DNA of 64,000 nucleotides from an uncultured Syntrophobacterales bacterium (GCA_965602785.1 CBFDAH010000001.1:633-64632), one strand, 5' to 3'. Positions 4,773 to 45,823 are shown, numbered from the stretch's first letter. Numbers and translations: made by a program. Notes: generated from the letters alone by a model not told the origin.

Positions 4773-4900
4773 GGTTTTCCTTCAAAGTGAAGCGCAGAGG
4801 TGGCCAGCGTCTGCAACCGTGGCCCTCCCCCTCGCATCTTCGCAGAATTTTTTTTCCGATTATTCGCTTTGCTCCGCAAAGAGAATAATGCTTTTTCAGT

Positions 4901-5106
4901 GGGGGGAAGGCCAGGGAGCATAGGGCGGGTTTGAAACCCGCCCCTACAAGCCCCCACCGAACACCCCCCTCCCAACCCGCTTAGGGGGTGGGTTGGGGCT
5001 GGACTCTTGGGCTCCGGCCCCAACCAACATTTCCAAACCCTTAAGGGATTGGGGGTTGGGTTACAGGGGAGGGGGTAAGGGGCCACGACCCTTAGCCCCC
5101 TCCCCC
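4901..5106. repeat. composite G/C-tract inverted-repeat element (copy A)
   Basis: Left GGGGGGAAGG..CCCCCACC arm interrupted by a GGGCGGGTTTGAAACCCGCCCCTAC hairpin. Then CCCCTCCCAACCCGCTTAGGGGGTGGGTTGGGG and CCAAACCCTTAAGGGATTGGGGGTTGGG palindromes. Right hairpin GGGGAGGGGGTAAGGGGCCACGACCCTTAGCCCCCTCCCC. Confidence 0.8.
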
Positions 5107-5140
5107 GGTCAATTTGGTAGAGGTAAAAATCATAATCGGC

Positions 5141-6538: not shown

Positions 6539-7929
6539 CGCCGGCCCCTCCGGCGGAGGTAGGCGGCCACTCCGGCGCTTAACATGACCAGGGGCAGGAG
6601 GATCAGGCTGACAGTGAAAATAATCAGGGTCTGCCAGTTCGAGAGCAGGAGAGGTTCAATTTTCTTATCAGTTTTACGAATGATGATCTGCTTTTCCTCA
6701 GCCGCTAGAAAATTCACGGTATTGAGGAAGAGGTCCCCATTGCCCAGTTGATTGAAGAACTCGTTGGCCGCGAAGTCCGCGTCCCCGAAAACCGCCAGGT
6801 AGGAATGCCGGTCGGCCGGAGACTTTTCGGAGGCCGGGGGTTTTGGCTTGGATTTGGGCTCCACCAGGACGGCCAGGGTAAAGGGGCCTTTTTTGTCTTG
6901 CTTGGGGTTAAAGAGGTTTTTTTTGTCCTTCTGCCAATCCTGGCCAAACTTTTCCCAACTGGCCTTTGAGGTAGTGACCAGGGGCAGGAGAGTGACGGTC
7001 TTGAGCTCTTTGTTCAGAAACAGGGGCCGGGGTTTGGGAAAGATAGTAGTAAGATAGAAATCCCGGGTGATGCGACTGGCGCCATATTTGGTGACGATGG
7101 GGCTCAAGATGGCCCGGTCCTGGGTGAGCTGATTCAACTCGAGAATGGTGCCGTTATCCAGGTTGACCCCGTAACCGGCCAGGAAGTCCTTGAGGCCGGC
7201 GTTCTGAAAGGGTTCGAGCATGAGAAAGAGGCGCCCGCCCAGTTTTAGATAGGCTTGGAGGGCAGCCACTTCTTGGGGCAAAAGATCCTTCTTGGGGGCG
7301 GCGATGATGACCACGGCGGCGTCTGGGGGCACTTGGCCCTCGGTGAGCAGATTCAGGTCGGCCAACTCATAGCCTTCATTTTTAAGGGCCTTCCTGGCCA
7401 CCTGGAAGCCGCGCCGCTTCTTTGGCCCAGTGCGCTCACCGTGGCCGGTGAGGAAGTAGAGCTTTTTCTGCTGTTTTTGCAGGACGCGGCGCAGAGCCTC
7501 GGACACAGGCTCCTCTTCAGGCCCCTCGGCCAACTGCCGCCGGCCATCGTATTCCAGGAGAACGTTGCCGTAGCGGCGGTAGCCTGCCTGGTCAGCGCGG
7601 ACGGGGTCTTTGTCCGGGTCTAAAAAGCGGTAGCTGACATTAGGGTTCTGGCGGGTATAGAGCTCCAGGACTTCCCGGGCTTGCTGCCGCTCCATGAAAC
7701 CATCCGGATAGAAAACCGTCAAGGTTAGAGGCTGGTTGACTTCCTTCAGGAGGGAGCGGCTTACGGCCGAGAGGGAATGGCTCTTGCCCCGGGTAAGGTC
7801 CCACCTGAGGGAGTAGCGGTTTCCCAGGAGGATCAAAAAGACGAGGATGCCAGCCACGAGAAGGACGGCTACGGCGGAACTGCCGCCATAGAACAGGGTA
7901 CGGTTTTGGAATTTCTCCCTGAGGCTCAC
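6535..7929 (-). CDS. GldG-family ABC-transporter auxiliary protein
   Basis: 464 aa with N- and C-terminal TM anchors and a large extracytoplasmic domain. Sits between an ABC-2 permease and a DUF4340-like gene. Confidence 0.65.
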   Translation of the reverse strand: MSLREKFQNRTLFYGGSSAVAVLLVAGILVFLILLGNRYSLRWDLTRGKSHSLSAVSRSLLKEVNQPLTLTVFYPDGFMERQQAREVLELYTRQNPNVSYRFLDPDKDPVRADQAGYRRYGNVLLEYDGRRQLAEGPEEEPVSEALRRVLQKQQKKLYFLTGHGERTGPKKRRGFQVARKALKNEGYELADLNLLTEGQVPPDAAVVIIAAPKKDLLPQEVAALQAYLKLGGRLFLMLEPFQNAGLKDFLAGYGVNLDNGTILELNQLTQDRAILSPIVTKYGASRITRDFYLTTIFPKPRPLFLNKELKTVTLLPLVTTSKASWEKFGQDWQKDKKNLFNPKQDKKGPFTLAVLVEPKSKPKPPASEKSPADRHSYLAVFGDADFAANEFFNQLGNGDLFLNTVNFLAAEEKQIIIRKTDKKIEPLLLSNWQTLIIFTVSLILLPLVMLSAGVAAYLRRRGRR

Positions 7930-7930
7930 G

Positions 7931-8701
7931 TTAAGCTCTCCAACGACGGGATTCCAACTGTATCTTGGTGAGGAAGAGAAAAAAGAAGGTGAAACTGAGA
8001 TAGTATACCAAGTCTCGGGTGTCGATAACGCCCCGGGCCAGGTTGGGGATGTGCTCCCGCAGGGACAGGGCGGCGACGAAGCTTCCCCAGTCTGAGCCCA
8101 CCTCTTTCAGGGCGCCGATGAGCCAGAACAGCAGGAGCAGGGCAAAGGCCGAAATGGCGCCGGTGATCTGGTTTTCGGTGAGGCTGGAGGCGAACAAGCC
8201 CAGAGAGAGGCAAGCGGCGCCCAAGAAGAAGAGGCCCAGGTAACCGGCAGCAAGCTGGCCCCAGTCCATGCTGGTCAGGAAGGCTAAAATCAAAGGATAG
8301 ACGAATGTGCACAATAACAAGGTCCCATAGACCGCCAGGGCCGCCAGAAATTTCCCCAAAATCACGGCCCAATCGGCCAGAGGATACGTAAAGAGAAGCT
8401 CGGCGGTGCCGGAGCGCCTCTCCTCCGCCAACAACCGCATGGTAAGGATGGGGGTGATAAGGAGAAAGATAAAGCCCAGGTCTTCAAAAAAAGAGCGAAA
8501 AACCACCTGGAAGGGATTCAGCATGGCAGCCAGTTGGGGGTTCTGGGCCACCTGGAAGCTCGCAGTCTGAAAGTAGCTGAAGTAAACAAAAAAGAACAGG
8601 AACCCTTCCACCAACAGGAAAAAGAATCCTATGACGTAAAAAATGGGGGTGGCGAAGTAAGTGGTCAATTCTTTGCGCAGGACGGCTGAGACCCCGGACA
8701 T
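7931..8701 (-). CDS. ABC-2 type transporter permease
   Basis: 256 aa polytopic membrane protein (about 6 TM), 2 nt from the GldG-like gene and 5 nt from the ATPase gene. Confidence 0.75.
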   Translation of the reverse strand: MSGVSAVLRKELTTYFATPIFYVIGFFFLLVEGFLFFFVYFSYFQTASFQVAQNPQLAAMLNPFQVVFRSFFEDLGFIFLLITPILTMRLLAEERRSGTAELLFTYPLADWAVILGKFLAALAVYGTLLLCTFVYPLILAFLTSMDWGQLAAGYLGLFFLGAACLSLGLFASSLTENQITGAISAFALLLLFWLIGALKEVGSDWGSFVAALSLREHIPNLARGVIDTRDLVYYLSFTFFFLFLTKIQLESRRWRA

Positions 8702-8706
8702 GGCGG

Positions 8707-9642
8707 CTATGCTTCCTCCTCGGTAACCAGATTGAGAAAAACCTCCTCCAGGGTGAACTCCTGGGCTTGCAACTCGAGCAAATCCCAGCCCCGTTCCACC
8801 ACCAGGCGGGCCAGTTCAGGACGGAGGTCCAGGTCTTCTTTCGCTTCCACCAGGTAGTGCGCCTCGCCCTGGTTAACTACACCTTTAACGCCGGGATGGC
8901 CCCTTAAGGCGGCGGCGACTTCGGGAACCGGACCCTGCACTTGAAGCCTCAGGCGAGAACCCTGACTCAACTGGCGGGAGAGGGTATCGGGGGTGTCACT
9001 GGCCACGATGTGGCCCTTGTTAATGATGATAACCCGCTGACAGAGCTGGCTCACCTCCGGGAGGATGTGACTGCTCAGAACCACGGTGTGCTCCCCGGAC
9101 AAATCCTTGATGAGTTGGCGGATTTCCACAATCTGGGCGGGGTCAAGACCGATGGTGGGCTCGTCCAGGATAAGGAGGGGGGGACTGTTCAAGAGGGCCT
9201 GGGCCAGGCCCACCCGCTGGCGGAACCCTTTGGAGAGGGAAGAAATGAGGGTCTCCCGCACTTCCGGAAGGCCGCAGGCCTCGCTGATCCGGTCCACTTC
9301 CGCCCGTTGTTTTTTGGCCTCCACCCCCTTGGCCCGGGCGGTAAAGCGCAGGAACTGGGCCACGGTGAGTTCGGAGTAAAGGGGGACTGTTTCAGGGAGG
9401 TAGCCCAGGGAGCGGCGCACGGCCAAAGATTCGGTGACACAGTCGTGGCCGTTAATGCGGGCCGTCCCAGAGGTGGGGGGCATAAAACCCGCCAGGATTT
9501 TCAAAGTGGTAGTTTTGCCGGCGCCGTTAGGTCCCAGGAAGCCGACGATTTCACCTTGGGCCACCTCGAAACTCAGGCGGCTGATGGCCAGGTGAGGGCC
9601 GTAATACTTGCTCAGGTCCTGTACTGCAACCATGGTTTCCAT
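8707..9642 (-). CDS. ABC transporter ATP-binding protein
   Basis: Walker A GPNGAGKTT, signature LSKGFRQR, Walker B LLILDEPT, H-loop SSH. Confidence 0.9.
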   Translation of the reverse strand: METMVAVQDLSKYYGPHLAISRLSFEVAQGEIVGFLGPNGAGKTTTLKILAGFMPPTSGTARINGHDCVTESLAVRRSLGYLPETVPLYSELTVAQFLRFTARAKGVEAKKQRAEVDRISEACGLPEVRETLISSLSKGFRQRVGLAQALLNSPPLLILDEPTIGLDPAQIVEIRQLIKDLSGEHTVVLSSHILPEVSQLCQRVIIINKGHIVASDTPDTLSRQLSQGSRLRLQVQGPVPEVAAALRGHPGVKGVVNQGEAHYLVEAKEDLDLRPELARLVVERGWDLLELQAQEFTLEEVFLNLVTEEEA

Positions 9643-10377: not shown

Positions 10378-10612
10378 GGGGTCCTCCTCGACACCTTGAG
10401 CATTTCAGGTCAGGTCACCTGGACCTGGAGGCGCCTTCTGCCCGTCCTGATAACTCTCACGGATGGGGGGAGCCTTATAAACCCGGATGTGGTTCCCTTG
10501 ATAAATGGTTGTGCCAGCCAGAAATTCAGAATGAATGGAGCTGATGTCAGTTTCTCACAAATAGGGGGAATCGCGTCATTTTCTTGACCTCAGTTCCTCA
10601 GGAACAATCTCC

Positions 10613-11539
10613 TCACCCCGGCTGGCGAAAAGCTTCAACGGTTTGAGCAAGCCCTTCCTCCAGGTCCATCGCGGCCTGCCAGTCCAGTGCCTCCCTGGCC
10701 AGGCGGGAGTCCAGAGCGCTGCGGCGTTGCTCCCCGGGCTTGGCGGGGCCATGCACCGGACAGAGGGGAGAATGGGCGAGTTTCTGGAGCTTGAGGTAAA
10801 TGGTGAGAATGTCGGTTTCCCGGCCGGTGCCGATGTTGAAGGTGCCGGAGCGGGGGTAAGCCAGGGCCTTAAGATTGGCCGCCACCACATCCCCCACAAA
10901 GACAAAGTCCCGGGTCTGGAGGCCGTCGCCGTTGATGATGGGCTGCTGGCCGGCCAGAAGTTTTTCAATAAAGATGGCCACCACGCCGGCTTCCCCCTGG
11001 CCGTTCTGGCGGGGACCGTAGACGTTGGCATAGCGGAGTGAGATGGTGGTGAGGCCGTACTCCGACTGATAAAACCGGAGGTAGTGCTCCACCGCCAGTT
11101 TGGCCACGCCATAGGGGCTTTCGGGCCAAGGGGGGTCGGTCTCCCGGGCCGGGATGGGGACCTCGTCACCGTAAAGGGCACCGCCGGTGGAGGCGAAAAT
11201 GATTTTTTTGACCTGGGCCTCCACCGCGGCCTGAAACAGGTTCAGGGAGCCCAGGATATTGTCCCGGGCATCAGCCACGGGGTCGGCCACGGAGATGCGG
11301 ACGCTCATTTGGGCGGCGTGATGTATTAGGGCTGCGGGGCGCCAGGAGCGGATAAGGTCCGCAGCGTCCGGGGAGGTAATGTCATAGGGGAAGAACTGGG
11401 CCTGGGAGGGGACGAACTCCCGCCGGCCGGTGCTGAGATTGTCAATTACCGCCACGTCATGACCCTCGGCCACCAGATTATCCGCCACGTGAGAACCGAT
11501 GAAGCCAGCGCCGCCGGTAACCAGGATACGAGCCATCAT
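10613..11539 (-). CDS. NAD-dependent nucleotide-sugar epimerase/dehydratase
   Basis: VTGGAGFIGSH Rossmann motif and catalytic YGVAK (YxxxK). Length and pattern of the UDP-glucose 4-epimerase family. Confidence 0.85.
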   Translation of the reverse strand: MMARILVTGGAGFIGSHVADNLVAEGHDVAVIDNLSTGRREFVPSQAQFFPYDITSPDAADLIRSWRPAALIHHAAQMSVRISVADPVADARDNILGSLNLFQAAVEAQVKKIIFASTGGALYGDEVPIPARETDPPWPESPYGVAKLAVEHYLRFYQSEYGLTTISLRYANVYGPRQNGQGEAGVVAIFIEKLLAGQQPIINGDGLQTRDFVFVGDVVAANLKALAYPRSGTFNIGTGRETDILTIYLKLQKLAHSPLCPVHGPAKPGEQRRSALDSRLAREALDWQAAMDLEEGLAQTVEAFRQPG

Positions 11540-11769
11540 ACCTCCCGAAAATGATAATCTTGTTGAAAAGAGCTAAGCTCCTAACTGGTTTTCTTTCGGA
11601 CGTTTTCATAATAACTAAAGGCTCAGCAAAGGGCAATTTTTCAGGCTTCCCCTTTTTATTTGGACTTCTCCTTCGCCTGCTTGTTAAAATGATCAGGAGT
11701 CACGTGCCGGGAGAAAGGCCTTTCTCAAGATTTTTTTCATCCACCCATGCTTATTATAAGGAGGGGGAG

Positions 11770-13188
11770 ATGTACTACTGGGGTCGTTTTGTGGGCATAT
11801 TGGCAAGTATAGTTTTTTTGAGTGCAGCTGGGGGGGCTGCGGCTCAAGAGCCGCCGGAGATGACCCTGCCGCAACTCATTTCTTTGGCCCTCAAATTCAG
11901 TCCGCAAGTAAAGACCAGCCAGAGCGATGTCACCCTGGCTGAGGCTCAGAAGGCCGAGGTCCGGGGTTACCGGTTCCCCCAATTGGACGCGGTGGCCTTG
12001 GGCGGCCTGGTACCCAAGGCTGATTTGCCGAGAATCGTCAACAACCGCATTTTTTACCCGGACCCCAAGTCCAAGATTCATGGGATGACCGTTTTTGGGC
12101 GCTTGGATTTTAGGCTGATTCAGCCTTTGTACACCTTTGGGAAGATTTCCCATCGGGAAAAGGCCGCGGCAAAAAATATCAAGGTCAAAACCGCCAAAGT
12201 TGACACCACCAGGGCGGAAGTCATCCTGCATGTGTCCAAGGCCTTCTACGGATTGGTGCTGGCCCAGCAGGGGGAAGATGCCGTAAGAGATGCTCGGGGG
12301 TATCTCAGCGACGCCAAGGAACGGATTACCCGGCTGTTGGCCGTTAAGTCTGCCAGCGTCAAGGACACTGATCCTTACCGCCTGGCAGTGTATGAGGGAG
12401 GGGTGGAGAAATTCGCCGCCGAGGCCGAAGAAGGAGCCAAGGTGGCCTACCGGGCCTTGCAGGCCCTCATCGGCTATAGTCCCAAGCAGGAGTTCCGAGT
12501 GCCCCTGGAGCTCCCGGAACCAACCCCGCCGGCTGGAAAACTGGACCATTTTGTGCTAATGGCCCTGGAACTCAGGCCCGAGTTCACCATGCTGAAAGAA
12601 GGCAAGGCGGCCCGAGAGCTCCTGGTGAAGGCGGCCAAGGCTGATTATTACCCGGACTTCTTCGCAGGGGTGATAGGTTTCCTGGCGGGGGCTCCCGGCC
12701 GCAGAACCTCTCAGGACCCCTTCCACCAGGACTATTTCAACGAGGCCGGCGCCGGGCCGGTGTTGGGCATCAAATGGCACTTCGACTTCGGCATCACCAA
12801 GGCCAAGCTGCGGCAGGCCCGGGCGGAGCTTAACAAACTACAACACCAGAAACGCACGGCCCTCATGGGCATCCCGATTCAAGTGGCGAAGGCCTATGGC
12901 AAGGTGACAGAGAACTACCGGGCCTCCAAGGGCATGTTGAAGGCTTACGTCAACGCCCGGCGCTGGATTATCACGGCCTTTAGCAACTTCGACATTGGCC
13001 TGGGAACCATGACGGACATCTTCGTGGCCTTTGAACGATACGGCATCGCCCGGGGGGACTACCTCCTGGCCCTCTTTAATTACCACCTGGCCGTGGCTGA
13101 GCTCAATAAGGCCACCGGGGCTTACCGGCGGACCTTGCCCAAAGAGGCGCCGCCCAAGGCGAAGAAACCGGGGCGTGCCGCCGGCTAA
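11770..13188 (+). CDS. TolC-family outer membrane efflux protein
   Basis: Start moved to in-frame ATG 11770, which gives a signal peptide (MYYWGRFVGILASIVFLSAAGGAAAQE). Two repeated coiled/beta halves typical of OEP/TolC proteins. Confidence 0.75.
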   Translation: MYYWGRFVGILASIVFLSAAGGAAAQEPPEMTLPQLISLALKFSPQVKTSQSDVTLAEAQKAEVRGYRFPQLDAVALGGLVPKADLPRIVNNRIFYPDPKSKIHGMTVFGRLDFRLIQPLYTFGKISHREKAAAKNIKVKTAKVDTTRAEVILHVSKAFYGLVLAQQGEDAVRDARGYLSDAKERITRLLAVKSASVKDTDPYRLAVYEGGVEKFAAEAEEGAKVAYRALQALIGYSPKQEFRVPLELPEPTPPAGKLDHFVLMALELRPEFTMLKEGKAARELLVKAAKADYYPDFFAGVIGFLAGAPGRRTSQDPFHQDYFNEAGAGPVLGIKWHFDFGITKAKLRQARAELNKLQHQKRTALMGIPIQVAKAYGKVTENYRASKGMLKAYVNARRWIITAFSNFDIGLGTMTDIFVAFERYGIARGDYLLALFNYHLAVAELNKATGAYRRTLPKEAPPKAKKPGRAAG

Positions 13189-13276
13189 GGCTAAAGCTCG
13201 CGGTTCCCTCATCGCACTTAGGTAGTTGCCTTCAAGACAATCGGTATTTCTGACACTTTTTTAGGCGGACCGTGGC

Positions 13277-14230
13277 ATGACCTGGCGGTTAGTGGTTTTT
13301 CCGTTGATTTTACCCTGGCGGCAGGAATTCTGGAGCCTGCCCCTGTATTTCCCGGAGTTGACGGCGGGGGTGTTGTGGCAGTGGCCTCCTGGGGTGCCCT
13401 ACCAGGGGAGGCCGCTTCCCCCGGCGGCGGAAGCCGGCGGCCGGGAACTCAGGCACTATGCGCCGGGGGAGCTCAAGCAATGGCAGGCCTATAAGGAATA
13501 TGCCAGCGACAAGGAGGGGTTGGAGGACATAGTGCGGGCTCTGAAGGGCGAACCGGAAGCCCCCGGAATGCCCGAGGGGCCGTGGAAGGATGAGGACGCC
13601 TTTAGCCTGGCCTGGCAACTGGAAATAATGGAGGCGGACCAGGAAGCGCACCTTTCCAGGGTGGATCTGGGGGAGGAGCGGCTGGCGGAAACCCTGACTC
13701 CGGAGACCTGGGAGGAGCGCGGCGATTTTGCCAGGGGCCTCGGGGACATGGAGATAGTGGACCCGGAGACGGCCCGGCTGCGCTATCTCTTGTGGCGGCG
13801 GGAGATGGGCGCACCCCTGGGAGCCGAAAGCCTGCCGCTGCTGTTGGGACGCACCTCCAAAGCCATTTTCGCTTCCTTGCGAAAAGAAGGTGGCGGGGGC
13901 ATGAGCACACAGGTCCGCCTTTCCCTCCCAGGCTGCCGCACGGCAGAGGAGTATCTGGCCGCCAGGGGTGGAGAAGCAGTACCGGGGTGGCTGCCGGAGT
14001 TCAAGAAGCTTCTGGGGGCCTGCCTCAGCGCGGCGGACCAGGATGCGGACCTGGAGTCACCAACTCAGGACCTGACCCGGTGGGTGACAGAGGAGCTGGC
14101 CCAGCAATGGCCGAACACCCCCGCCTGGTCCTGGGACCTGGAGATTTGGGGCAAGGCGGCGCTGGTCAAGGAAGGTGGAGAGGCGCTGCTGGCCTGGGGT
14201 GGCCGGGGTGAAGAGGTGGTGCCGGGTTAG
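13277..14230 (+). CDS. hypothetical protein; its 3' end is duplicated at 18378..18465
   Basis: 317-aa ORF with no recognisable motif. Acidic, Trp-rich. Confidence 0.5.
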   Translation: MTWRLVVFPLILPWRQEFWSLPLYFPELTAGVLWQWPPGVPYQGRPLPPAAEAGGRELRHYAPGELKQWQAYKEYASDKEGLEDIVRALKGEPEAPGMPEGPWKDEDAFSLAWQLEIMEADQEAHLSRVDLGEERLAETLTPETWEERGDFARGLGDMEIVDPETARLRYLLWRREMGAPLGAESLPLLLGRTSKAIFASLRKEGGGGMSTQVRLSLPGCRTAEEYLAARGGEAVPGWLPEFKKLLGACLSAADQDADLESPTQDLTRWVTEELAQQWPNTPAWSWDLEIWGKAALVKEGGEALLAWGGRGEEVVPG

Positions 14231-14233
14231 AGG
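14147..14233 (+). repeat. direct repeat copy 1 (3' end of gene 13277..14230 plus 3 nt)
   Basis: GCGGCGCTGGTCAAGGAAGGTGGAGAGGCGCTGCTGGCCTGGGGTGGCCGGGGTGAAGAGGTGGTGCCGGGTTAGAGG is repeated at 18385-18465 with one extra codon and 2 substitutions. Confidence 0.85.
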
Positions 14234-14340
14234 CTGATCTGGTCTAGATTTTTGTTGATAGAGTGATAACTGCTGATAACGGCAAGCTAGCTATGGCGGA
14301 TCCGAGTAGATTGCTAATTTCGACTTTATTCATTTGACCG

Positions 14341-14380
14341 GAAAACAAAATGGCGGATGATGCACCTGACCCTCCGCCAT
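14341..14380 (-). terminator. rho-independent terminator downstream of gene 14402..14803
   Basis: Minus-strand reading ATGGCGGAGGGTCAGGTGCATCATCCGCCAT followed by TTTGTTTTC. 8-bp GC-rich stem. Confidence 0.6.
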
Positions 14381-14401
14381 CTCGATTGACTCAATACGAT
14401 C

Positions 14402-14803
14402 TCAATAGCCCGAGCGGAACCAGCCCGTCTGCTTGTTCACTTGGATTTTATCCACCAGGGACCCTTCTTTCTTGGTGACAATGTCCACCTCATAGGTGCC
14501 GTCCTTTTCAGTGACCTTGCCCGCCTTCAAGTTGGGATTGCCGCTGATCTGCTGCTCCACCATGGCTTTAGCCTGGTCCGCCGTCAGGGGCTGTCCGGGT
14601 TTGGCCACCGGCGGTCCGGTCTGAGACCCCATCCAGGGGCAGTACCAGCCGCCCTTTTGTCCTTGCGGGGCAGGGCCGCCGCCCCCCATCCAGGGGCAGT
14701 ACCAGCCTCGCTGGCCGGGCCCCTGGGGCTGGGCCGAGAGGTTCCCAATCACCAGTAAGACGGACAAAAATGTCAACAATCCTGCAATAGCCAATTTTTT
14801 CAT
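14402..14803 (-). CDS. secreted protein with tandem GWYCPWMG motifs and a PepSY-like C-terminal domain
   Basis: Start moved to ATG 14803 (AAGGAG RBS at 14811-14816, signal peptide MKKLAIAGLLTFLSVLLVIGNLSA). Two copies of G(R/G)GWYCPWMG(G/S). C-terminus KVTEKDGTYEVDIVTKKEGSLVDKIQVNKQTGW is PepSY-like. Confidence 0.6.
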   Translation of the reverse strand: MKKLAIAGLLTFLSVLLVIGNLSAQPQGPGQRGWYCPWMGGGGPAPQGQKGGWYCPWMGSQTGPPVAKPGQPLTADQAKAMVEQQISGNPNLKAGKVTEKDGTYEVDIVTKKEGSLVDKIQVNKQTGWFRSGY

Positions 14804-14926
14804 TTTTTTCTCCTTTTGTCTTTTTAGTAAAAAAGTGAGTACCAGCTTAAATTCTGACCATCTAATATTATTCTCGATGGGTATCTGCAATGAAGTAGAG
14901 TCACAAGGGTTGCGAAGGTTAAATCT

Positions 14927-15562
14927 TCAACTCTTCTCACAAGGCATGCTGCAGCAAGTGCAAAGCTTCTCCTCTTTCAAAGCTTGATAGCCTTCCCGGA
15001 CCAGCACGGCCACAATAACTAGCCCGATGATGGGGTCCGCCTGCCAGATGCCATAGAAATAGTTCAGACCGAGCCCGATGAGGAGGCCCAGGGAAAGCAT
15101 GGCGCAGGCCAGGGTTTGCTTTGAGTCGGCCATGAGGCTGGCACTTCCCAAAGATTTTCCTGTTTGATACTTGAGATAAAACAGCCCCGGCATGATGATA
15201 AGGGACACCGAGGCAATGATCATACCTAAAAGGCTGGGAGAAGGGGCTTCCTGGAAAAGGAGTTTTTTCAGAGATTCATACAACACGTAGGCCGCAAGGA
15301 TGAAGAAGGTGTATCCCACCAGTCGAATAGCCTTCTTTTCCAGACGTTCCTCTTCCTGGGGGGTGAGGTTGGCATGGGGCCGGAAGCGCCAGATCATGAC
15401 GCCGCCGGAGAGGGATTCCACCACACTGTCCAGTCCAAAGCCCACCAGAGCAATGCTCCCCGCCAACCAGCCGGCCAGAATGGAGATCCCGCCTTCCAGG
15501 ATGTTATAGCCCACCGTAAAGTATGATAACCAGCGGGCCCGTTTCTGGAGATTTTCTTTCAT
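14927..15562 (-). CDS. cation diffusion facilitator (cation efflux) family membrane protein, short form
   Basis: Six predicted TM segments. TM2 region GFGLDSVVESLSGGVMIW is CDF-like. Ends in the Cys cluster CTCCSMPCEKS. Lacks the usual cytoplasmic C-terminal domain. Confidence 0.7.
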   Translation of the reverse strand: MKENLQKRARWLSYFTVGYNILEGGISILAGWLAGSIALVGFGLDSVVESLSGGVMIWRFRPHANLTPQEEERLEKKAIRLVGYTFFILAAYVLYESLKKLLFQEAPSPSLLGMIIASVSLIIMPGLFYLKYQTGKSLGSASLMADSKQTLACAMLSLGLLIGLGLNYFYGIWQADPIIGLVIVAVLVREGYQALKEEKLCTCCSMPCEKS

Positions 15563-15622
15563 TGCAAAAACCTACCTTTCAATCCTCTCACCTTGGCTTT
15601 TCCGCCAGGGATCGCCAAAGAG

Positions 15623-16168
15623 TTACTCACATTGACAACTGTCCGTATGACCAACGTTGGGCTCAACTTGCTGGTTTGCTGCTACAGCCTTGCCACGCTT
15701 GTTCATCCACCACCAGGCTCCGATGATGGTGAGGGTGGTGAGCGCCGCTACCAGAGGTTTCGCCACCGGGAGGAACCAGGCTCCGAAAAGGTTGAGATAA
15801 ACCACCAGCATGGGGGAGCCACAACAACCCGCCAAGAAACAACCAGCCAGCGCCAGGAAGGCCGAAAAGGTCACCCCGCCTGCCGCCAGGGTTTTGCCGG
15901 AGCAGAAACGCGCTTCCCAATATCGACATACCAGCACCGCAGCAAAAGCCAGGGAAAGGGCATAGGAATAGCCCAGCCAGTAGCTCTGAGTTTCGAGATA
16001 CCGTTTTAACCAGGAGGTAGAGCCAGACGCAGGGAATGAAGCCCACCTGGCCTGGGCCGGGTCGACTTCCGGGAAAAAGCCAGACCACAGGTAATGGCCC
16101 AGCAAAACGGCGCCAAAGACGCTCGCCGGCAGGATGGCTCGTTTAAGGCGGTTCAGGGTTATGGTCAT
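15623..16168 (-). CDS. membrane protein with a GCCGSP motif and a C-terminal HTDSCQCE tail
   Basis: About 4 TM segments. 4-nt overlap with the upstream gene 16165..16557. No family recognised. Confidence 0.5.
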   Translation of the reverse strand: MTITLNRLKRAILPASVFGAVLLGHYLWSGFFPEVDPAQARWASFPASGSTSWLKRYLETQSYWLGYSYALSLAFAAVLVCRYWEARFCSGKTLAAGGVTFSAFLALAGCFLAGCCGSPMLVVYLNLFGAWFLPVAKPLVAALTTLTIIGAWWWMNKRGKAVAANQQVEPNVGHTDSCQCE

Positions 16169-16557
16169 TTGGAGCCCTTTTTCTGCAATCGCGACGCCTC
16201 GAAGAAAAGTTTCCCGCCGGATTTCCGCACTTCACCCTCTAATTGGACTACATCCCGGACCGCAGGCAAGGGACCCTTCCATTTTACCGGCAGAGTAAGG
16301 GGCGCACAGGTGGTGACGCCACAATCCTTTAACTCCTGAATGTCGATCAAGGACAAAGCCTGGTCTGACGGGGAGACGGCGCTCACCACCCCTTCCAGGC
16401 GAACCTTGCCCCGATAACGGTCAACGTTTTTCATAAATTCCTGCACACCGAGAACCGGAGACTCCGTCTGGCTGCCAGCAGCAGGAATTTTAACCAAAAT
16501 CAGGGGTATGATCATGACTAGGGCTGCGGCATAAAGCAAGGTTAGATGACGCTTCAT
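16165..16557 (-). CDS. exported hypothetical protein (CGVTTC motif)
   Basis: N-terminal signal/anchor MKRHLTLLYAAALVMIIPLILV. Translationally coupled to the downstream membrane protein. Confidence 0.45.
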   Translation of the reverse strand: MKRHLTLLYAAALVMIIPLILVKIPAAGSQTESPVLGVQEFMKNVDRYRGKVRLEGVVSAVSPSDQALSLIDIQELKDCGVTTCAPLTLPVKWKGPLPAVRDVVQLEGEVRKSGGKLFFEASRLQKKGSK

Positions 16558-16634
16558 GGCAAATATTCCTCATTGAGGCCCGGAGAACCGATTTTTTCCT
16601 GTGGCCCAGCCGACCGGCTGGAAGTGGTAGTACC

Positions 16635-17813
16635 TCAGGTGCCGGTGTCCCGGCAGGATGGTCCGCAGTCACTTGGGGCCAGACTTAGGAGCCGAGGTTC
16701 CTCGGGGGCCGCATCCTGTATATACCTCTCCCCTGTCTTGAGGGACTCCTCCGCCCGGGAAAGTTCCTGCCCCAGGTAAGCGGCGTGGTCCAATCTGGAA
16801 AGAAGCCCCCTGTCGATGGCAGGAGTGTAAAGTTCAGCCGCGGTCCTCCCCTCGATGATGGCGTCCAGCACCCCGTCATTGCGGTAGTGTTCCAGGGAAA
16901 GAAGGCCCCTTGAGCGGTCGGCATAGACCACGAAATAACCGGCCGGATCGGACACCATGCGACTGGGGAGATAGCCCGGGACGGGCTCCAGCAGCGGCGT
17001 GGAGTGGAAAGGGATGGCCGGACCGGAGTTTTGGGTGGCGCAGGCTTCTACCATGGCGATGATTTTCGCCATATCAGACTGTCCCATGAGATCAACCACT
17101 GCTACCGTCTGACGGAAGTGCTCCACCGCCTCCAGGCTGATATTTTTCAAAACGGGTCGCCGCCCTCGGGCTCCCAGGATGCGGCCGCGCTGATCTACCC
17201 CATTTTGGGCCAGAGCCACCAAAGACTGTCCCGGAAAGTGTCCCACCTCCTGCTGGGAATCGGGGCCGCAGAGAATCAGGTGGCGGATATGAGGGTTGGC
17301 CAGGACATTGTGGATCACTCGCTCGATTCCCAAATTTTCCGTGCACAGCGTCCCGACAATGGAGAGGTCCGGCCCTGTCTCCCGAGCTATAGCCTGGGCC
17401 AGGGTTTCATCCATCAGGGAGCACACTGCCACCGGGGCACAGAAACGGCGGATGATATATGACCCAGGAAGGGGGGGCCAGCCCGGACGTGCTTCAACTT
17501 TTTCACCAGGGCACAGGTCCAGTTCCACGAGATCCTTACCGATTGCCTGGGAAAGGGCCGTCACAATGAGAGGAGGAAAACAGACCTCGCATCCGAAGCA
17601 ATCGTATTGCACCTCGGTTAGGCATTCTTGTGCCCTGGTCACAGCTTCGGTCAATTCCCTAGATAGACCGTCAACGCCAGAGTCCTTGGCCAAGGCCCCG
17701 AGCAAGGCATGGAAACAGCCGCACGCCCTGCATTTCTTGGCGGCGCTGGCTTCGGAGAACAAAGAGAGGGCTTTTTCCAAGGCTTCTGATGAACCTAGAT
17801 GAGCTTCGGTCAT
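16635..17813 (-). CDS. cysteine-rich protein with an MtrA-like (tetrahydromethanopterin S-methyltransferase subunit A fold) core and a DUF4346-like C-terminal region
   Basis: Start moved to ATG 17813, which overlaps the arsR stop as ATGA. N-terminal CRACGCFH...CFGCEVCFP. Central IHNVLANPHIRHLILCGPDSQ resembles soluble MtrA homologues. Assignment is from memory of the family pattern only. Confidence 0.5.
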   Translation of the reverse strand: MTEAHLGSSEALEKALSLFSEASAAKKCRACGCFHALLGALAKDSGVDGLSRELTEAVTRAQECLTEVQYDCFGCEVCFPPLIVTALSQAIGKDLVELDLCPGEKVEARPGWPPLPGSYIIRRFCAPVAVCSLMDETLAQAIARETGPDLSIVGTLCTENLGIERVIHNVLANPHIRHLILCGPDSQQEVGHFPGQSLVALAQNGVDQRGRILGARGRRPVLKNISLEAVEHFRQTVAVVDLMGQSDMAKIIAMVEACATQNSGPAIPFHSTPLLEPVPGYLPSRMVSDPAGYFVVYADRSRGLLSLEHYRNDGVLDAIIEGRTAAELYTPAIDRGLLSRLDHAAYLGQELSRAEESLKTGERYIQDAAPEEPRLLSLAPSDCGPSCRDTGT

Positions 17814-18193
17814 TCGGCTCTCTCCTCGGCCTCTTCGCTCAGGCACAGCCCGTAATTCAAGAGGGCAATGACGCAGGGGTCAGAAATCCGATAATGCGAA
17901 TTGGGGCCCTCACGCCTGCCCCCGAGGATGCCTCGCAGTACCAACAATTGAAGCTGGTTGGAAACTGCTTGAGGGCTCATGCCTACCACATCGGCCAATT
18001 CGGACACTCGCAGCTCCTTAGCTCTAACCAACGCATGGAGAATTCTGAGGCGATTTTCGTTGGCCAGGACCTTAAAAATGCCAGTTAAGTCGGCGGCCTG
18101 CTCTAAAGTCAGCAGGGGCCGCTCCCCCAGCGCCGGTTTGGTCCGGCAGGAAGGCTGCTCCATGATTAGGGTTGTGATATCCATATCAACCAT
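17810..18193 (-). CDS. ArsR/SmtB-family metalloregulator
   Basis: LANENRLRILHALVRAKELRVSELADVVGMSPQAVSNQLQLLVLRGIL is a typical ArsR winged-HTH. First gene of the island operon. Confidence 0.85.
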   Translation of the reverse strand: MVDMDITTLIMEQPSCRTKPALGERPLLTLEQAADLTGIFKVLANENRLRILHALVRAKELRVSELADVVGMSPQAVSNQLQLLVLRGILGGRREGPNSHYRISDPCVIALLNYGLCLSEEAEERAE

Positions 18194-18211
18194 TACATTA
18201 ACTCATGTAAT
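18192..18211. promoter_or_regulatory. candidate ArsR operator (7-6-7 inverted repeat) overlapping the arsR start codon
   Basis: ATTACAT-TAACTC-ATGTAAT at 18192-18211. A TATAAT-like box lies on the minus strand immediately upstream (18211-18216). Confidence 0.35.
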
Positions 18212-18377
18212 TATATATGTCAAGGTGCAGGTGATAGGTATTTGAGATGAGGATGAGCAGAAGTGAGAGATAGACCTATGGCCTAACTAAAAGCAGGAAA
18301 GTGCGCGTAACTGCTATGTATCGACGCTTTGGAGGGATCGGTAACTTTACCGATATGATTTTCATAGTGCAGGCGCC

Positions 18378-18465
18378 GCGGGGAGCGGCGACGCTGGTCA
18401 AGGAAGGGGGAGAGGCGCTGCTGGCCTGGGGTGACCGGGGTGAAGAGGTGGTGCCGGGTTAGAGG
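18378..18465 (+). repeat. direct repeat copy 2 (orphan 3' gene fragment: AATLVKEGGEALLAWGDRGEEVVPG*)
   Basis: Aligns with 14147-14233. It keeps the reading frame and the TAG stop (18460-18462) but has no upstream ORF. Confidence 0.85.
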
Positions 18466-18567
18466 GAGCTGGCCAACGGTTACGGGAATGGGAGTTGGGT
18501 CAGTCTCCCCCAGCTCCGGCTCTAACCCTTGCTGAAAAAACTGCTGGTTAAAAATGCCCGGGAGGAA

Positions 18568-18876
18568 TTACCTTTCCCATCCAGGCGGCGGAACGGCCAG
18601 GCGAACAAAATTGCCATCCCTGTCCGTGAGGAGGAATTTTTTCCCTGAAGGCAAGCGGAATGCTCTCAGAGTGATGGGCGGGCCTTCATCATAAATGGCC
18701 GGCATCTCGGTTTCCAGCAGTTCTGCCTTCACTTCGGTGACCTCACCTATTTCTTTCCCTTCCACTACCAGAGAGTACGTTTTTTCGGTAACTGTAAAAG
18801 TCACCCCTTCTCCGGCCAGCACTTCTGAAACTTCCTTGAGTTGATCAGTAGGCACATAAAGTTCCATAGTCTTCAC
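18568..18876 (-). CDS. hypothetical protein
   Basis: 102-aa ORF with plausible composition and no motif. Followed by a 340-bp AT-rich ORF-free stretch. Confidence 0.4.
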   Translation of the reverse strand: MKTMELYVPTDQLKEVSEVLAGEGVTFTVTEKTYSLVVEGKEIGEVTEVKAELLETEMPAIYDEGPPITLRAFRLPSGKKFLLTDRDGNFVRLAVPPPGWER

Positions 18877-19213
18877 CTCTGGGTTAGGTCCACCCTGTTA
18901 TCTTTCTTACGATTTCCACCTCTCGATGACTCGATTAGGTGTTTTTTAGATAAGTATCTCGGGACGATATGTCAATGAGGCGAATTTTCCAATTAAGGAT
19001 TATTAGCCCCTACTCTATAGTCTCGTTTTGGAATTTTTAAAAAATTTCTTCCCTTCTAGTTTATTCCCCCCTCTCATTGATAGGTAGGGCTGGGTGGCAG
19101 ATACATTTCGAGATGATGAGGGGAAATTATTCCCCCAACCTTCATCTCCTCCCACCAGGGTAGGGCAAACTATCCTTCTCGAACATTTTCTAAATTATCT
19201 CTGCAATACAACG

Positions 19214-20197
19214 CTATGAATGAATTTCAACAATGTCCCCCTCCTGGAGGAGGTATTCCCGCTGCACCCTTTGGCCCTCGAAGGTCTCCTTGCCCCAGAC
19301 CCGGGCGAACTTGAATTTTTTCCCTAAATCATGATGAATACGGTCGGCCAGCTCCGTGATGGTGGTGCGCACCGGCACCACGAAGGGGGACTTGAAGTTG
19401 GCGGCCTTGCCGGGAACGCGGGTATAAACCCGGATTAGGTCCAGAAATAAAAAGAGGGCGGCCCGGAGTTCGGGGAGGCCCTGGCCGGTTATGGTGGAGA
19501 CGGTCCAGACGGGAAAGCGCTCGCCGAGGACCTCAAGATACAGCTCCAGTTCCTCGGGGTCGGGGATGAGGTCGGTCATATTGAGGACGACGAGGGCCCG
19601 TCGGGGGGTGAGGTTGGGGGGTGGAGAGCCGCCGTCTTGGCCCTGAAGGGCCAGGTGGAAGCCGGCCAGAGTGGCTTCCAGGGCGGCCAGCCGGGCGTCA
19701 GGGTCTTGAGGGGGGGCCAGGATGATGGCGAAGGCATCGGCCCGGCGCAGGAGATCCGGGTACCAGGGCTCCAGATACTCGTCACCCAGGGGGGGGCAGT
19801 CCACCAGCTGCACCTGGACGTTTTCGAAGCGCATCATGCCGGCCAGAGGGATGCGGGTGGTGTAGGGGTAGTCGGCGATAAGGGGCTGGGCCTTGGTCAG
19901 GGCCGCCACGAGGGAGGACTTGCCGGTATTGGGGGGGCCGATGAGGGCCACCTGACCCACCCCTTCACGTTCCACCAGGTACACGGGAGCCCGGCGTCCG
20001 GGGCCCTTACGGGAGGACCCCATATCCTTGAGCTGGGCGATGCGCCGGCGGAGGTCGGCCTTGAGTTTGTCGGTGCCCTTGTGTTTGGGCATGATGGCCA
20101 ACATCTCTTCCAGATACTTGAGCTTTTCACTCACAGACCTGGCCCCCCGGTAGCGCTTCTCCACTTCGAAGTACTGGGGGGGGAGGTTGGCCGGCAT
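19214..20197 (-). CDS. DRG/Obg-like GTP-binding protein with C-terminal TGS domain
   Basis: G1 GPPNTGKSS, then the Mg/G2 region YPYTT. C-terminal TGS-like VWGKETFEGQRVQREYLLQEGDIVEI. Confidence 0.75.
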   Translation of the reverse strand: MPANLPPQYFEVEKRYRGARSVSEKLKYLEEMLAIMPKHKGTDKLKADLRRRIAQLKDMGSSRKGPGRRAPVYLVEREGVGQVALIGPPNTGKSSLVAALTKAQPLIADYPYTTRIPLAGMMRFENVQVQLVDCPPLGDEYLEPWYPDLLRRADAFAIILAPPQDPDARLAALEATLAGFHLALQGQDGGSPPPNLTPRRALVVLNMTDLIPDPEELELYLEVLGERFPVWTVSTITGQGLPELRAALFLFLDLIRVYTRVPGKAANFKSPFVVPVRTTITELADRIHHDLGKKFKFARVWGKETFEGQRVQREYLLQEGDIVEIHS

Positions 20198-20828: not shown

Positions 20829-21500
20829 TTAAGCTATGACCTTCTCCAATAAACCGAACATCTCAGTCGGAGATGAGGTTATCGCTGTTGCCCCAAGGCT
20901 TATGGCTGTGTCCCCATATTCTTTTGAGGATCGAAAGGTAGTAAATATGATGAATGGTATTGTCTTATTATGTTCTCTGATTCGTTGTAATAATTCTAAT
21001 CCAGCAGTTTCTTTGTATGCCCCATCTTCAGTACGTCCCATATCGGAAATAATAACACCATAATTAGTCTTGTCAAATAGCCGTAGGCCTTTAGATGTCG
21101 ACACTGCTGTATCAACTTTAATGCCTTTATCTGAGAGCTGTTGGAATAAATAGCTATTATTCTTGGGCTGGTCGTCAACCCATAGAATAGACCTAGCGAC
21201 AGGAGGCGCTGTCACCAGGACTCTCTCGAGTCTTTCGGCTGGTACCGGCTGCACAACCCCTTCGATCCTCTTCTGGATATCGATCACCTGGGCCTGAAGA
21301 TCAGCGATGAGAGTGCGCTGCTGTTCGCTGGCTTCCTCCATCGTCAGTTCCTGGCCGCCGATCTTCAAGGTGAACTTCCGTGATTTGGCAGATTCGATGA
21401 GCGCCGCAACGGCAGGCCGAAACAGAACAATTAATAGGATAATGATGGCAGGCCATGCTAGTGTTGCAAGTCCCTCAAGTAATTTAGAAACGTCTGTCAT
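20829..21500 (-). CDS. membrane-anchored coiled-coil protein with a C-terminal receiver (REC)-like domain
   Basis: N-terminal TM (LATLAWPAIIILLIVLF). C-terminus ILWVDDQPKNN...YGVIISDMGR...IPFIIFTT has the REC acidic pocket and phospho-acceptor pattern. The 3' half is markedly AT-rich. Confidence 0.55.
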   Translation of the reverse strand: MTDVSKLLEGLATLAWPAIIILLIVLFRPAVAALIESAKSRKFTLKIGGQELTMEEASEQQRTLIADLQAQVIDIQKRIEGVVQPVPAERLERVLVTAPPVARSILWVDDQPKNNSYLFQQLSDKGIKVDTAVSTSKGLRLFDKTNYGVIISDMGRTEDGAYKETAGLELLQRIREHNKTIPFIIFTTFRSSKEYGDTAISLGATAITSSPTEMFGLLEKVIA

Positions 21501-22701: not shown

Positions 22702-22726
22702 GTGACCTCCTGGTTATGGGATATGT

Positions 22727-22908
22727 GGGGGAGGGGGCTAAGGAGCGCAGCCCCTTACCCCCTCCCCCACACCCCCTCCCCCAATCCCTTATGGGGAATT
22801 ATCCCGGGAAAGTGAAGGCCAAAGGCCTCGCCTTTTCCTGGCCTAGATGCGGGTTGGGAGGGGGGTGGGGGGGGAGGGCAGGGACCACTGGTCCCTGGCC
22901 CTCCCCCC
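22727..22908. repeat. composite G/C-tract inverted-repeat element (copy B)
   Basis: GGGGGAGGGGGCTAAGGAGCGCAGCCCCTTACCCCCTCCCCC ... CCCCCAATCCCTTATGGGG ... GCGGGTTGGGAGGGG ... GGGGGGAGGGCAGGGACCACTGGTCCCTGGCCCTCCCCCC. Fills the whole gap between two convergently oriented... same-strand genes 22306..22701 and 22925..23530. Confidence 0.85.
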
Positions 22909-22924
22909 ACAAAAACTATAACTA

Positions 22925-25312: not shown

Positions 25313-25327
25313 AGGTTTTGGTTTCTT

Positions 25328-25370
25328 GGGGGAGGGGGCGAAGGGTCGCAGACCCTTCCCCCCTCCCCCC
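25328..25370. repeat. single G/C-tract hairpin unit between pabB and pabC
   Basis: GGGGGAGGGGGCGAAGGGTCGCAGACCCTTCCCCCCTCCCCCC occupies most of the 66-nt pabB-pabC gap. Confidence 0.85.
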
Positions 25371-26773: not shown

Positions 26774-26783
26774 GATGATGTTT

Positions 26784-26970: not shown

Positions 26971-26977
26971 AACCAAC

Positions 26978-44354: not shown

Positions 44355-44564
44355 AGAAGGTGGGAGGGACCTTGGGAAGGCGTGGCGCCTGAGCCCCTGG
44401 CCCACCCATAACTCATGAAAATTTTTTACAAATATTCTGGAGTGGCGGAACAAACTTCCAACTTTGAACCCTGAACCTTGAACGTAACAAGACTAAGCAA
44501 TCTTGGTCATCAGGCCAAACCAGCCAAATCGGTTTCACCAGCCCGTTGTACCAGAGAGGACGGC

Positions 44565-45823
44565 ATGGGTTTAAAAGATTACTTCGGCAGATGGTTCAAG
44601 TCACAACCGAAGCCCGACACCAGGGAACTGGCAGCCGTGAGCATTCATGACCGATGGAGCGCCTATCCCAGCGTTGGGCTGACCCCTAGGGGCCTGGCCA
44701 GCATTTTCCAGGAGGCGGACCTGGGTGCAGTGCGCCGCCAGATGGAACTTTTTGAGGAGATGGAGGAGAAGGACGCGCATCTGGCGGCCATCCTGCAGAC
44801 CCGCAAGCTGGCGGTCTTAAGTCTGGATTACGAGGTGCTGCCCTACGCCAAAACACCGGAGGACGAGCACATCGCCGAGACGATGGGGGAGATGGTCTGG
44901 GGGATTCCCAACCTGGAGACCGCTTTCCTTGATTTGCTGGATGCCATCGGCAAGGGCTTCGCCCTGGCGGAGATCATCTGGGGAGTAGAACAAGGCCAGG
45001 CTCGGGTGGTGGAACTCAATTGGGTGCCTCAGAAGAAAGTGACCTTTGTGGAGGACCTGGCGCCCCGCCTGATGACGGCGGACGGTCCCTGGCAGGGGGG
45101 GTGGAACTGCCCCCCTGGAAGGTCATCTACCACCGCTACAGGGCGCGGAGCGGGCATGACACCCGGGCGGGAGTCCTTCGAGTGGCGGGCTACATGTATC
45201 TGCTCAAGAATTACGCCCTGAAGGATTGGGCTGCGTTCAACGAGATCTTCGGGATGCCGCTGCGCTTAGGTAAGTACGACCCGGCCTCCACTCCGGCGGA
45301 CCGTGAGGCCCTGATCCAGGCTATCCGCAACCTGGGGTCGGACGCGGCGGGAATCATCAGTAAGAACACGGAGATTGAGTTTGTGGAGACCGCCAACCGG
45401 ATCTCGGGAAGCAACAACCCTTACCAGGTGCTGGCGGACTTTTGCAACCGGGAGATGTCCAAGGCCATTTTGGGACAGACCCTGACCACGGACACCTCCG
45501 GAGGAACGGGAACCTTTGCCGCCGCCAGGGTGCACGCTCAGGTGCGGCGGGATCTGGTGGAAGCGGACGCCCAGGCCCTGGGGCACACCTTGCGGGAGCA
45601 GTTGCTACGGCCGCTGGTGGGCTTCAACTTCGGCTGGGACAAGCCGGTGCCCTGGTTTCGCTTCCGGTACGAGGAAGAAGAGGACCTCAAGACCCTGTCG
45701 GAGGTTTACCGGAACCTGGCACACATGGGGTTACCCATGAGTATGGAACACGTGGCGGAGCGCTTCGGCATCCCTCTGGCCCAAAAGGGCCAGGAGACCT
45801 TAGGGCGGCGCGACGGAAGCTGA
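44565..45823 (+). pseudogene. Mu gp29-type portal protein (DUF935), split by a frameshift at a G7 run
   Basis: The N-terminal half is in the frame of ORF 44478..45221 (start ATG 44565). The C-terminal half is in the frame of ORF 45020..45823 (YALKDWAAFNEIFGMPLRLGKYD..., NPYQVLADFCNREMSKAILGQTLTT). The sense switches at GGGGGGG 45095-45101. Confidence 0.8.

Follow-up and report, generated by a model that had tools for sequence, protein, structure and literature searches.

An operon-sized island bracketed by a duplicated gene end in an uncultured Syntrophobacterales bacterium

Islands integrated at the 3′ ends of genes are exemplified by SGI1 in trmE and ICESt3 in fda, and at protein-gene targets the attachment (att) repeats that bracket such elements measure 15-60 bp. 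Related to them are the cis-mobilizable elements (CIMEs), which by definition keep attL and attR and have lost the genes for integration and transfer (PMC6323972). DNA can also integrate where a short segment is shared and no site-specific recombinase takes part; after such integration in E. coli conjugation experiments, a duplication of 109-950 bp flanked the insert, and the joints of homology-facilitated illegitimate recombination (HFIR) have 3-10 bp of microhomology (PMC3240628). Furthermore, hotspots without evidence of mobile elements make up half of those studied, 27% being without integrases or transposases, and recombination is raised in the core genes that flank hotspots (PMC5635113). 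The locus described here lies in 64,000 nt of DNA from an uncultured Syntrophobacterales bacterium (GCA_965602785.1 CBFDAH010000001.1:633-64632; hereafter the window), in which an island of 4153 nt (14234-18386) with six minus-strand genes is bracketed by two copies of the 3′ end of a conserved hypothetical gene, the target gene.

From sequence comparison, the island is read as a one-off insertion into a variable hotspot. The sequence-only reading of this DNA had taken the repeats for attL and attR of a site-specific element and had offered three origins: a stranded integrative element, an element mobilised in trans, or another duplication mechanism. The assignment as att sites is not supported as stated, given the results from 61 related species representatives, the relatives of the operon that are without the repeat, the negative database searches and the island ends, which correspond to a promoter and a terminator and not to att arms; of the three origins, the last is at least as likely as the first two.

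Gene-end duplication, empty site and variable spacer

A repeat search of the 64-kb window paired 14148-14233 with 18380-18465 (86 nt, 93% identity, start-to-start spacing 4232), and BLAST trimmed this pair to 14155-14233 and 18387-18465, which are 96.2% identical over 79 nt (76/79) without any indel (E ~5e-31), with fainter similarity upstream back to 14148/18380. Among the long direct repeats of the window, it is the only pair falling outside a family of repeats resembling repetitive extragenic palindromic (REP) sequences. It is clear that the end of the target gene is duplicated, as had been proposed, and reading of the open reading frames (ORFs) agrees that the second copy is an orphan fragment still in frame; the AGG noticed after the stop codon in both copies falls inside the 79-nt repeat. 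The extra codon attributed to the orphan fragment was, however, not borne out, since the DNA alignment is ungapped over all 79-86 nt and the difference between 'AAL' and 'ATL' is therefore a substitution (GCG to ACG), no additional codon being needed. The other coding change in the orphan copy is from Gly to Asp at a glycine nearly invariant in the family. The mismatches are found at 14159 (G/A), 14176 (T/G) and 14202 (G/A), leaving perfect blocks of 16, 25 and 31 nt as read from the alignment; the longest of these, CCGGGGTGAAGAGGTGGTGCCGGGTTAGAGG, forms the last 31 nt of the repeat, and all mismatches lie in the left 48 nt.

The similarity has a blurred left edge (14148-14159) and a sharp right one. 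At the left, 14148-14158 and 18380-18390 share GGGG...GGCG (8/11), a match compatible with chance in G+C-rich DNA. At the right, identity ends 3 nt past the stop codon, in the 5′ arm of a long imperfect inverted repeat that begins within the final codons of the orphan copy and is a native gene-end structure, also present at the empty site described below. This native hairpin was rejected as a structured recombination site, its fold being no better than that of shuffled sequence (z ~-1.2 to -1.4; window and L002). At the other junction, the repeat supplies the 5′ arm of a hairpin and the island, with its first bases, the 3′ arm; followed by a T-run, this hairpin resembles an intrinsic terminator serving the target gene. 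The repeat search found no terminal inverted repeats at 14234/18386.

The occupied form is present in five independent same-species assemblies with 99.3-99.9% identity, of which L126 spans both junctions, L001, L008 and L127 the left one and L057 the right one, with contig ends not at the repeats. Since both junctions are spanned in independent assemblies, an assembly artefact appears very unlikely. That the DNA between the repeats was inserted, as claimed earlier, is borne out by the nearest other lineage (L002/L003, ~80% nucleotide identity), in which the gene is directly followed by the equivalent of window 18466 onward. In L002, positions 143-3869 align to window 10504-14234 and positions 3795-5461 to window 18392-20051, and the 75-nt segment common to both alignments (a 75-79 nt segment) is present there in single copy. 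The empty site that had been named among the checks thus exists, and no relative was found with the same arrangement and diverged repeats. Neither the island nor the gene-end duplication occurs in any of 61 Desulfobaccales species representatives, in which a second copy of the gene end was sought within 10 kb, and the island is therefore derived. The order of the target gene, the convergent gene for a DRG GTPase, p248, p131 and p207 recurs across these representatives, with target and DRG genes ~6 nt apart in several of them. All close (same-species) strains examined are already occupied, and the comparison set had no sister lineage at 90-98% identity. As the two copies are 96% identical, against ~80% for the nearest other lineage, the duplicated piece came from the same species or arose in place.

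Among relatives, the gap between the target and DRG genes ranges from ~6 nt to 3.7 kb, and its content differs by lineage: nothing, only the gene for a 102-aa protein (L002), a GDSL lipase (L005; weak Pfam match), or citrate-synthase-like (L062), GNAT-like (L065) and secreted repeat proteins (L094). Lineages without an adjacent DRG gene have other genes in the gap to p248, among them an ORF in L101 that resembles an IS1595-type transposase; the gap ORFs of these last four loci were identified by reading translations, without a Pfam scan. No flanking repeats were found around the spacer inserts of other lineages. Judged from these comparisons, the spacer downstream of the target gene behaves as an insertion hotspot. 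Elsewhere in the neighbourhood, between rpoZ/DRG and p248, window 20829-21500 encodes a 223-aa protein that combines a receiver domain with a transmembrane segment (G+C content at third codon positions, GC3, 0.45); related species have only ~0.5 kb at this place, and the stretch is a second small lineage-specific insertion.

Differences between same-species assemblies cluster within the target gene, the island and the right flank, the densest patch having 20 differences in 73 nt (14960-15032), whereas the upstream 8.4 kb differ by 0.02%. Such clumps may have been imported by recombination, in part from diverged operon copies, or may reflect chimeric consensus sequences of co-assembled strains.

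Cargo operon and its surroundings

The six minus-strand genes headed by arsR, as first described from the sequence, were recovered by ORF calls and by Pfam and NCBIfam scans. The features of the locus and of its surroundings are collected in Table 1.

Table 1. Features of the island, its flanks and related loci (window positions unless a locus is named)
Feature	Position or locus	Strand	Evidence or context
Target gene, 317-aa conserved hypothetical protein, Desulfobaccales-wide; intact when occupied	13277..14230	+	ORF; homologue alignment
Left repeat copy: final 25 codons of the target gene, stop and AGG; weaker similarity from 14148	14155..14233	+	
Junction hairpin GCCGGGTTAG/CTGATCTGGT then CTAGATTTTT	14221..14253	+	terminator-like match in terminator scan; fold
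Island left end, non-coding; ATGGCGGA-(15 nt)-TCCGCCAT then TTTTGTTTTCC at ~14343-14381, minus strand	14234..14401	.	direct sequence reading
133-aa secreted protein, signal peptide; last operon gene	14402..14803	-	ORF; 133-aa gene call in L001, L126, L127
Short cation diffusion facilitator (CDF), 211 aa, membrane domain only	14927..15562	-	PF01545 E=1e-19; TIGR01297 matched at positions 9-193 of 285
181-aa membrane protein (mem181), accompanies MtrA-like gene in many loci	15623..16168	-	ORF; locus comparison
130-aa protein (p130), N-terminal hydrophobic segment, conserved operon partner	16165..16557	-	ORF; locus comparison
392-aa MtrA-like (corrinoid-binding family) and DUF4346 pterin-binding-domain protein, Cys-rich N-terminus	16635..17813	-	PF04208 E=2e-36, PF14251 E=6e-22
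ArsR/SmtB-family metalloregulator, first operon gene	17810..18193	-	NF033788 E=6e-22; HTH_5 and HTH_20
Operon promoter/operator, TTGACA ... ATTACATGAGTTAATGTAAT palindrome	18194..18317	-	alignment with L123, L007, L125, L006; BLAST end points
Island right end, ~70 nt, this lineage only; small hairpin 18337-18354	18318..18386	.	alignment; terminator scan
Right repeat copy: orphan in-frame 3′ fragment of the target gene; three substitutions, one conserved Gly to Asp	18387..18465	+	
Long imperfect inverted repeat GGGTTAGAGGGAGCTGG ... CCAGCTCCGGCTCTAACCC	18457..18528	+	repeat search; folds of window and L002
102-aa protein, no assigned function, native right-flank DNA	18568..18876	-	at empty site in L002 (85% aa)
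DRG/Obg-like GTPase with TGS domain	19214..20197	-	Pfam; synteny
Dense difference patches	13482-13757, 14057-14123, 14258-14816, 14960-15032, 17898-18290, 18987-19138		same-species assemblies
REP-like repeat sites	5038-5107, 22719-22909, 25320-25370, 26783-26992, 31200-31315, 53656-53741, 55562-55600, 61379-61429		
Closest operon copy	P0123 contig		adjoins NfeD/Band_7 genes
Closest operon copy	L006		between gidB, K+ channel gene and methyltransferase/SulP pair
Closest operon copy	L007		between DJ-1 gene and DUF2207 gene
Closest operon copy	L125		adjoins SSF transporter gene
Closest operon copy	L123		extra 2 kb inside operon

The MtrA/DUF4346 protein scored 430 bits against NF002128, under the 568-bit cut-off, and its Cys-rich N-terminus reads KKCRACGC...QYDCFGCEVC; a GTG at 17846 was rejected as its start in favour of the ATG at 17813, the homologues being 392 aa long. 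The 133-aa secreted protein has no Pfam or NCBIfam match and contains the motif GWYCPWMG(G/S) twice, 19 residues apart, which may be a metal-binding site; a homologous 3′ part of its gene stands at the end of L123. The promoter contains a predicted operator palindrome, ATTACAT-N6-ATGTAAT, that is kept with the operon in four other loci (L123, L007, L125 and L006). An ArsR/SmtB regulator upstream of a CDF-domain transport gene, combined with a palindromic operator, provides the features of a metal(loid) response operon, and the domain logic suggests a pterin-to-corrinoid methyl transfer controlled by a metal sensor. GC3 is 0.60-0.69 for the island genes and 0.73-0.83 for the neighbouring core genes.

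The AT-rich, ORF-free ends of the island that had been pointed out are both real, and their content is that of the operon's own promoter and operator on the right and its terminator on the left. The hairpin and T-run at ~14343-14381 of the minus strand likely represent this terminator, which the simple terminator scan did not report because the loop exceeds 8 nt. With promoter and operator at one end and this hairpin at the other, the island amounts to one complete transcription unit plus ~100 nt on the left (~14234-14340, extra DNA outside the unit) and ~70 nt on the right, where no recognisable site was found in 18318..18386.

Homologues of the MtrA/DUF4346 protein number more than 2000, and the module of ArsR, MtrA/DUF4346, p130 and mem181 is syntenic in ~30 fetched loci (L006-L061 and L123-L125 were compared), the CDF gene being added in the closest ones. 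The operon itself is found in at least five other contexts (P0123 contig, L006, L007, L123 and L125), none of which has the 79-nt repeat, and no flanking direct repeats were found around the three copies tested (L006, L007 and L009). Similarity to the window stops at ~18315-18317 in L123 and L007, at ~18302 in L125 and at ~18272 in L006, at least 70 nt short of the repeat, and L123 continues for 440 nt beyond that point without any sign of the gene fragment. The repeat is therefore neither a constant nor an intrinsic end of the cargo. An origin from a phage or plasmid was rejected: the 25-nt repeat core has no exact match in IMG/VR, the phage set contains no relative of the island, and the sole match in the plasmid set covers ~160 nt of the CDF gene at ~70%. 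The cargo module is widespread and apparently unstudied; the literature searched contains no paper mentioning DUF4346.

Two of the comparison loci deserve separate mention. In L006, a 1.4-kb segment with the K+ channel gene lies just upstream of the operon, between arrays of an 11-nt motif (TTTCCCGCTGA) at 7901-7951 and 9439-9490, and may be another small bracketed insertion. L004, with a target-gene relative at 77% amino acid identity and different downstream DNA, stops 397 nt past the gene; its positions 4120-4148 contain a 24-nt stretch matching window 14261-14288 (20/24) at the same distance from the stop codon as at the left end of the island. Joining of L004 to L123, an operon copy from the same sample, was rejected for lack of overlap.

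The target protein has no Pfam or NCBIfam match either; its homologues (n=298), some of them named Desulfobaccales or Desulfobacca, are mostly 315-320 aa long, and the DRG GTPase gene is its conserved convergent neighbour across Desulfobaccales. Further away in the window, a Mu-like structural module (42336-61000) encodes Portal_Mu, Mu-like protease I, major head subunit gpT, Gp36 and a 1262-aa tail-fibre-like protein, with no transposase or early region visible in it. The Portal_Mu match covers only the 247-aa ORF 44478..45221, which is overlapped by ORF 45020..45823, suggesting a frameshift, and the module may be a defective prophage or a remnant resembling a gene transfer agent. The REP-like G/C-rich palindromic intergenic repeats (GGGGGAGGGGGC...GCCCCCTCCCCC) occupy at least eight sites in the window and were rejected as a cause of the island, none being situated at its borders. 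A segment of 628 nt (4189-4816) is missing from the otherwise 99.6-100% identical L126; it covers most of a putative surE gene, as aligned to a SurE-annotated gene in L005, and its absence is either a strain-level deletion or an assembly difference.

Explanations for the duplicated gene end

The footprint requires either that a near-identical copy of the last ~79 nt of the gene came in with the operon or that those bases were copied during repair. The explanation we favour, though we put it at a little short of an even chance, is that host recombination produced the island, by HFIR or by a single crossover at short homology. A horizontally acquired, self-contained operon would have entered the spacer between the convergent target and DRG genes on sister-strain DNA in which it already followed the 3′ end of the target gene. 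The host machinery would have recombined this DNA on the left through the gene-end homology, with a crossover inside the gene, and the other end would have been joined ~79 nt before the stop codon of the recipient, either illegitimately at the short G-rich microhomology GGGG...GGCG, as in HFIR, or by single crossover of a circularised fragment. With the join so far upstream of the stop, the recipient's own last 79 nt would have been kept on the far side and not replaced, and the orphan copy would be the scar left by joining the incoming DNA. We infer the donor, the type of crossover and the lack of any involvement of an integrase. The island is without mobility function and not self-mobile.

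Host recombination is preferred because the other hotspot inserts examined have no flanking repeats (their ORFs were not scanned for recombinases), because the repeat is unlinked to the cargo elsewhere, because the island consists of the operon alone and because the repeat copies are as alike as DNA of the same species. As in short-homology insertion, a chromosome-homologous segment stands in direct orientation on both sides of the insert, and the clumped strain differences, which have the apparent pattern of recombination imports, were likewise counted in its favour. Several points weigh on the other side. The required donor, with the operon just downstream of the gene and no orphan copy, was not found, all close strains examined being occupied. 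For a RecA-type exchange, a repeat of 79 nt in which no perfect block exceeds 31 nt is short, and such events are rare. An intact gene with a duplicated 3′ end and a usable terminator at the junction is also expected from an evolved integrative element, and the substitutions in the orphan copy fit a copy borne by such an element as well as decay after the event. Moreover, part of the clumping could come from consensus sequences that are chimeras of co-assembled strains. On sequence alone, the mechanisms are not distinguishable.

Next comes an integrase-less site-specific element resembling a CIME, which we consider possible but unlikely: the repeats would be attL and attR, and a tyrosine integrase would have acted in trans, from elsewhere in the genome or from a helper, or would since have been deleted. 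With the same reservation, an attP carrying a replacement for the 3′ end would have recombined with the chromosomal gene end. The footprint conforms to the classical pattern, in that the gene 3′ end is duplicated, the ORF is intact and the terminator hairpin and T-run are completed by the first bases of the island, and the existence of an empty site, the right edge of identity 3 nt past the stop inside an inverted repeat and the retention of both presumed att sites with loss of the integration and transfer genes, as in CIMEs, agree with it. The confinement of the mismatches to the left 48 nt, with the last 31 nt perfect, would fit a fixed crossover near the stop and a diverged, element-borne left arm. 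The gene content, however, gives no sign of such an element. Among the six island genes, Pfam and NCBIfam scans (hits for ArsR, MtrA/DUF4346 and CDF, none for the other three) revealed no recombinase family, and no integrase, excisionase or pseudogene remnant was found in the island, which comprises one operon and ~170 nt. In the rest of the 64-kb window, neither an integrase nor a transposase came up when the ORFs judged non-housekeeping were scanned against Pfam; the remaining ORFs, not all scanned, were called housekeeping from synteny and from the genes listed for related loci. Only structural genes were seen in the Mu-like region at 42-61 kb. The initial observation that no integrase, transposase or excisionase lies in or beside the island thus held in the family scans of the island and of the scanned window ORFs.

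The comparative evidence points the same way, since none of the 61 related species carries an element or a duplication at this gene end, the closest relatives of the operon have neither the repeat nor the adjoining ~70 nt, and the phage, plasmid and IMG/VR searches gave only the match over the CDF gene. No reuse of the att site by related elements was seen, the same 61 representatives having neither a duplication nor an integrase-bearing insert there, which is a weak test as the site is only ~80% conserved. No significant shared arm-type motifs were found at the island ends; the 8-mer TAACTGCT occurs twice in the window, once near each end of the island and in the same orientation, and was given no weight as an arm-type site, one shared 8-mer between segments of ~170-200 nt being about what chance would give. 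A tRNA or tmRNA gene as the target was rejected, the window containing none, as was a transposon, there being no transposase and no terminal inverted repeats, and a duplication of 79 nt against the short 2-15 bp.

A one-step duplicative insertion is improbable. Here a break or a stalled fork at the gene-end inverted repeat would have captured foreign DNA, and staggered ends or template switching would have copied ~79 nt to both sides. Neither a homologous donor nor a recombinase would be called for, the outcome being like an unusually long target-site duplication, again an improbable course. A single event would suffice, and the sharp right edge inside the 5′ arm of the native inverted repeat, the near-identity of the copies and the repeated rearrangement of the spacer in relatives suit it. 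To our knowledge, however, no known bacterial mechanism makes duplications anywhere near as long as a 79-nt stagger would, the similarity has no sharp edge on the left, and the hairpin and T-run at the junction would have to be a coincidence.

It is conceivable, though very improbable, that the operon and its ~170 nt of end sequence form a minimal recombinase-free cassette whose movement depends on an unrecognised recombinase, acting in trans or belonging to the host, with the structured 3′ end of a conserved gene as its target; that such a cassette would regenerate the gene end and the terminator on insertion is just as doubtful. If this were true, Desulfobaccales would harbour a new class of very small integrative element. 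Hardly credible, and already largely refuted, is the last alternative, that no insertion occurred, the island and both repeats being ancestral and lost in relatives by inter-repeat recombination, or the duplication being an assembly artefact: recombination between 79-nt direct repeats would recreate the exact state of L002/L003, so that this empty site could be secondary, but the 61 order-wide representatives are without the island and their target and DRG genes nearly abut in many, the GC3 of the island genes is below that of the flanking core genes, and the junctions are reproduced in five independent assemblies with contig ends away from the repeats.

Relation to known systems

The occupied and empty sites together document the entry of a metal-responsive operon into an uncultivated Desulfobaccales lineage, and the ArsR-controlled MtrA/DUF4346 cargo may be biologically more interesting than the scar. 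Duplication of a gene end does not prove that an integrase acted, as host recombination can leave the same scar in a hotspot otherwise without mobility genes, and caution is advisable in that such repeats should not be annotated as att sites.

The tyrosine-recombinase islands at the 3′ ends of tRNA, tmRNA or protein genes are similar in that the gene 3′ end is duplicated as attL and attR and the end is restored by element DNA; they encode an integrase beside one att site, whereas none was found in this island. Of the features of integrative elements, flanking repeats derived from the target and an empty site in relatives are thus present, and an integrase within the element was not found. The island works like a Campbell-type insertion and fails the feature of an integrase in cis. 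Its repeat of 79 nt also exceeds the 15-60 bp of att repeats at protein-gene targets, which sets it apart from integrase-less remnants such as CIMEs. With these it shares the short island, the direct repeats duplicating the 3′ end of the target, the missing integration and transfer genes and the intact gene (PMC6323972). It is unlike them in that no cognate integrative and conjugative element, integrative and mobilizable element or integrase for this site is known or was found, in that it holds one operon with no element remnants and in that its site is unused in 61 related species; of the features of CIMEs, the lack of both gene sets and the repeats are present, and a cognate integrase or element was not found. 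Should it be true that an integrase acts in trans, the island would represent a rare case, outside Firmicutes, of a very small CIME-like element.

HFIR and the single crossover of circular DNA resemble the island in placing foreign DNA beside a homologous anchor by host functions, with a direct duplication around the insert (PMC3240628). The 79 nt found here are, however, shorter than the 109-950 bp of the experimental duplications, the donor is hypothetical, and HFIR as usually described yields a deletion whereas the island shows a duplication. The hotspots free of mobile elements (Oliveira et al. 2017, PMC5635113) are alike in having a fixed core-gene spacer, a cargo that varies by lineage and raised polymorphism in the flanking core gene, and no integrase or transposase was found at this island either. 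The hotspot model rests on double homologous recombination in the flanks, by which no duplication is predicted, and the island with its orphan copy of 79 nt would be an imprecise variant of it. It is therefore best filed as a hotspot insertion with an imprecise joint, or alternatively as an integrase-less island remnant, both of which are known kinds, and is a real but fairly ordinary insertion scar.

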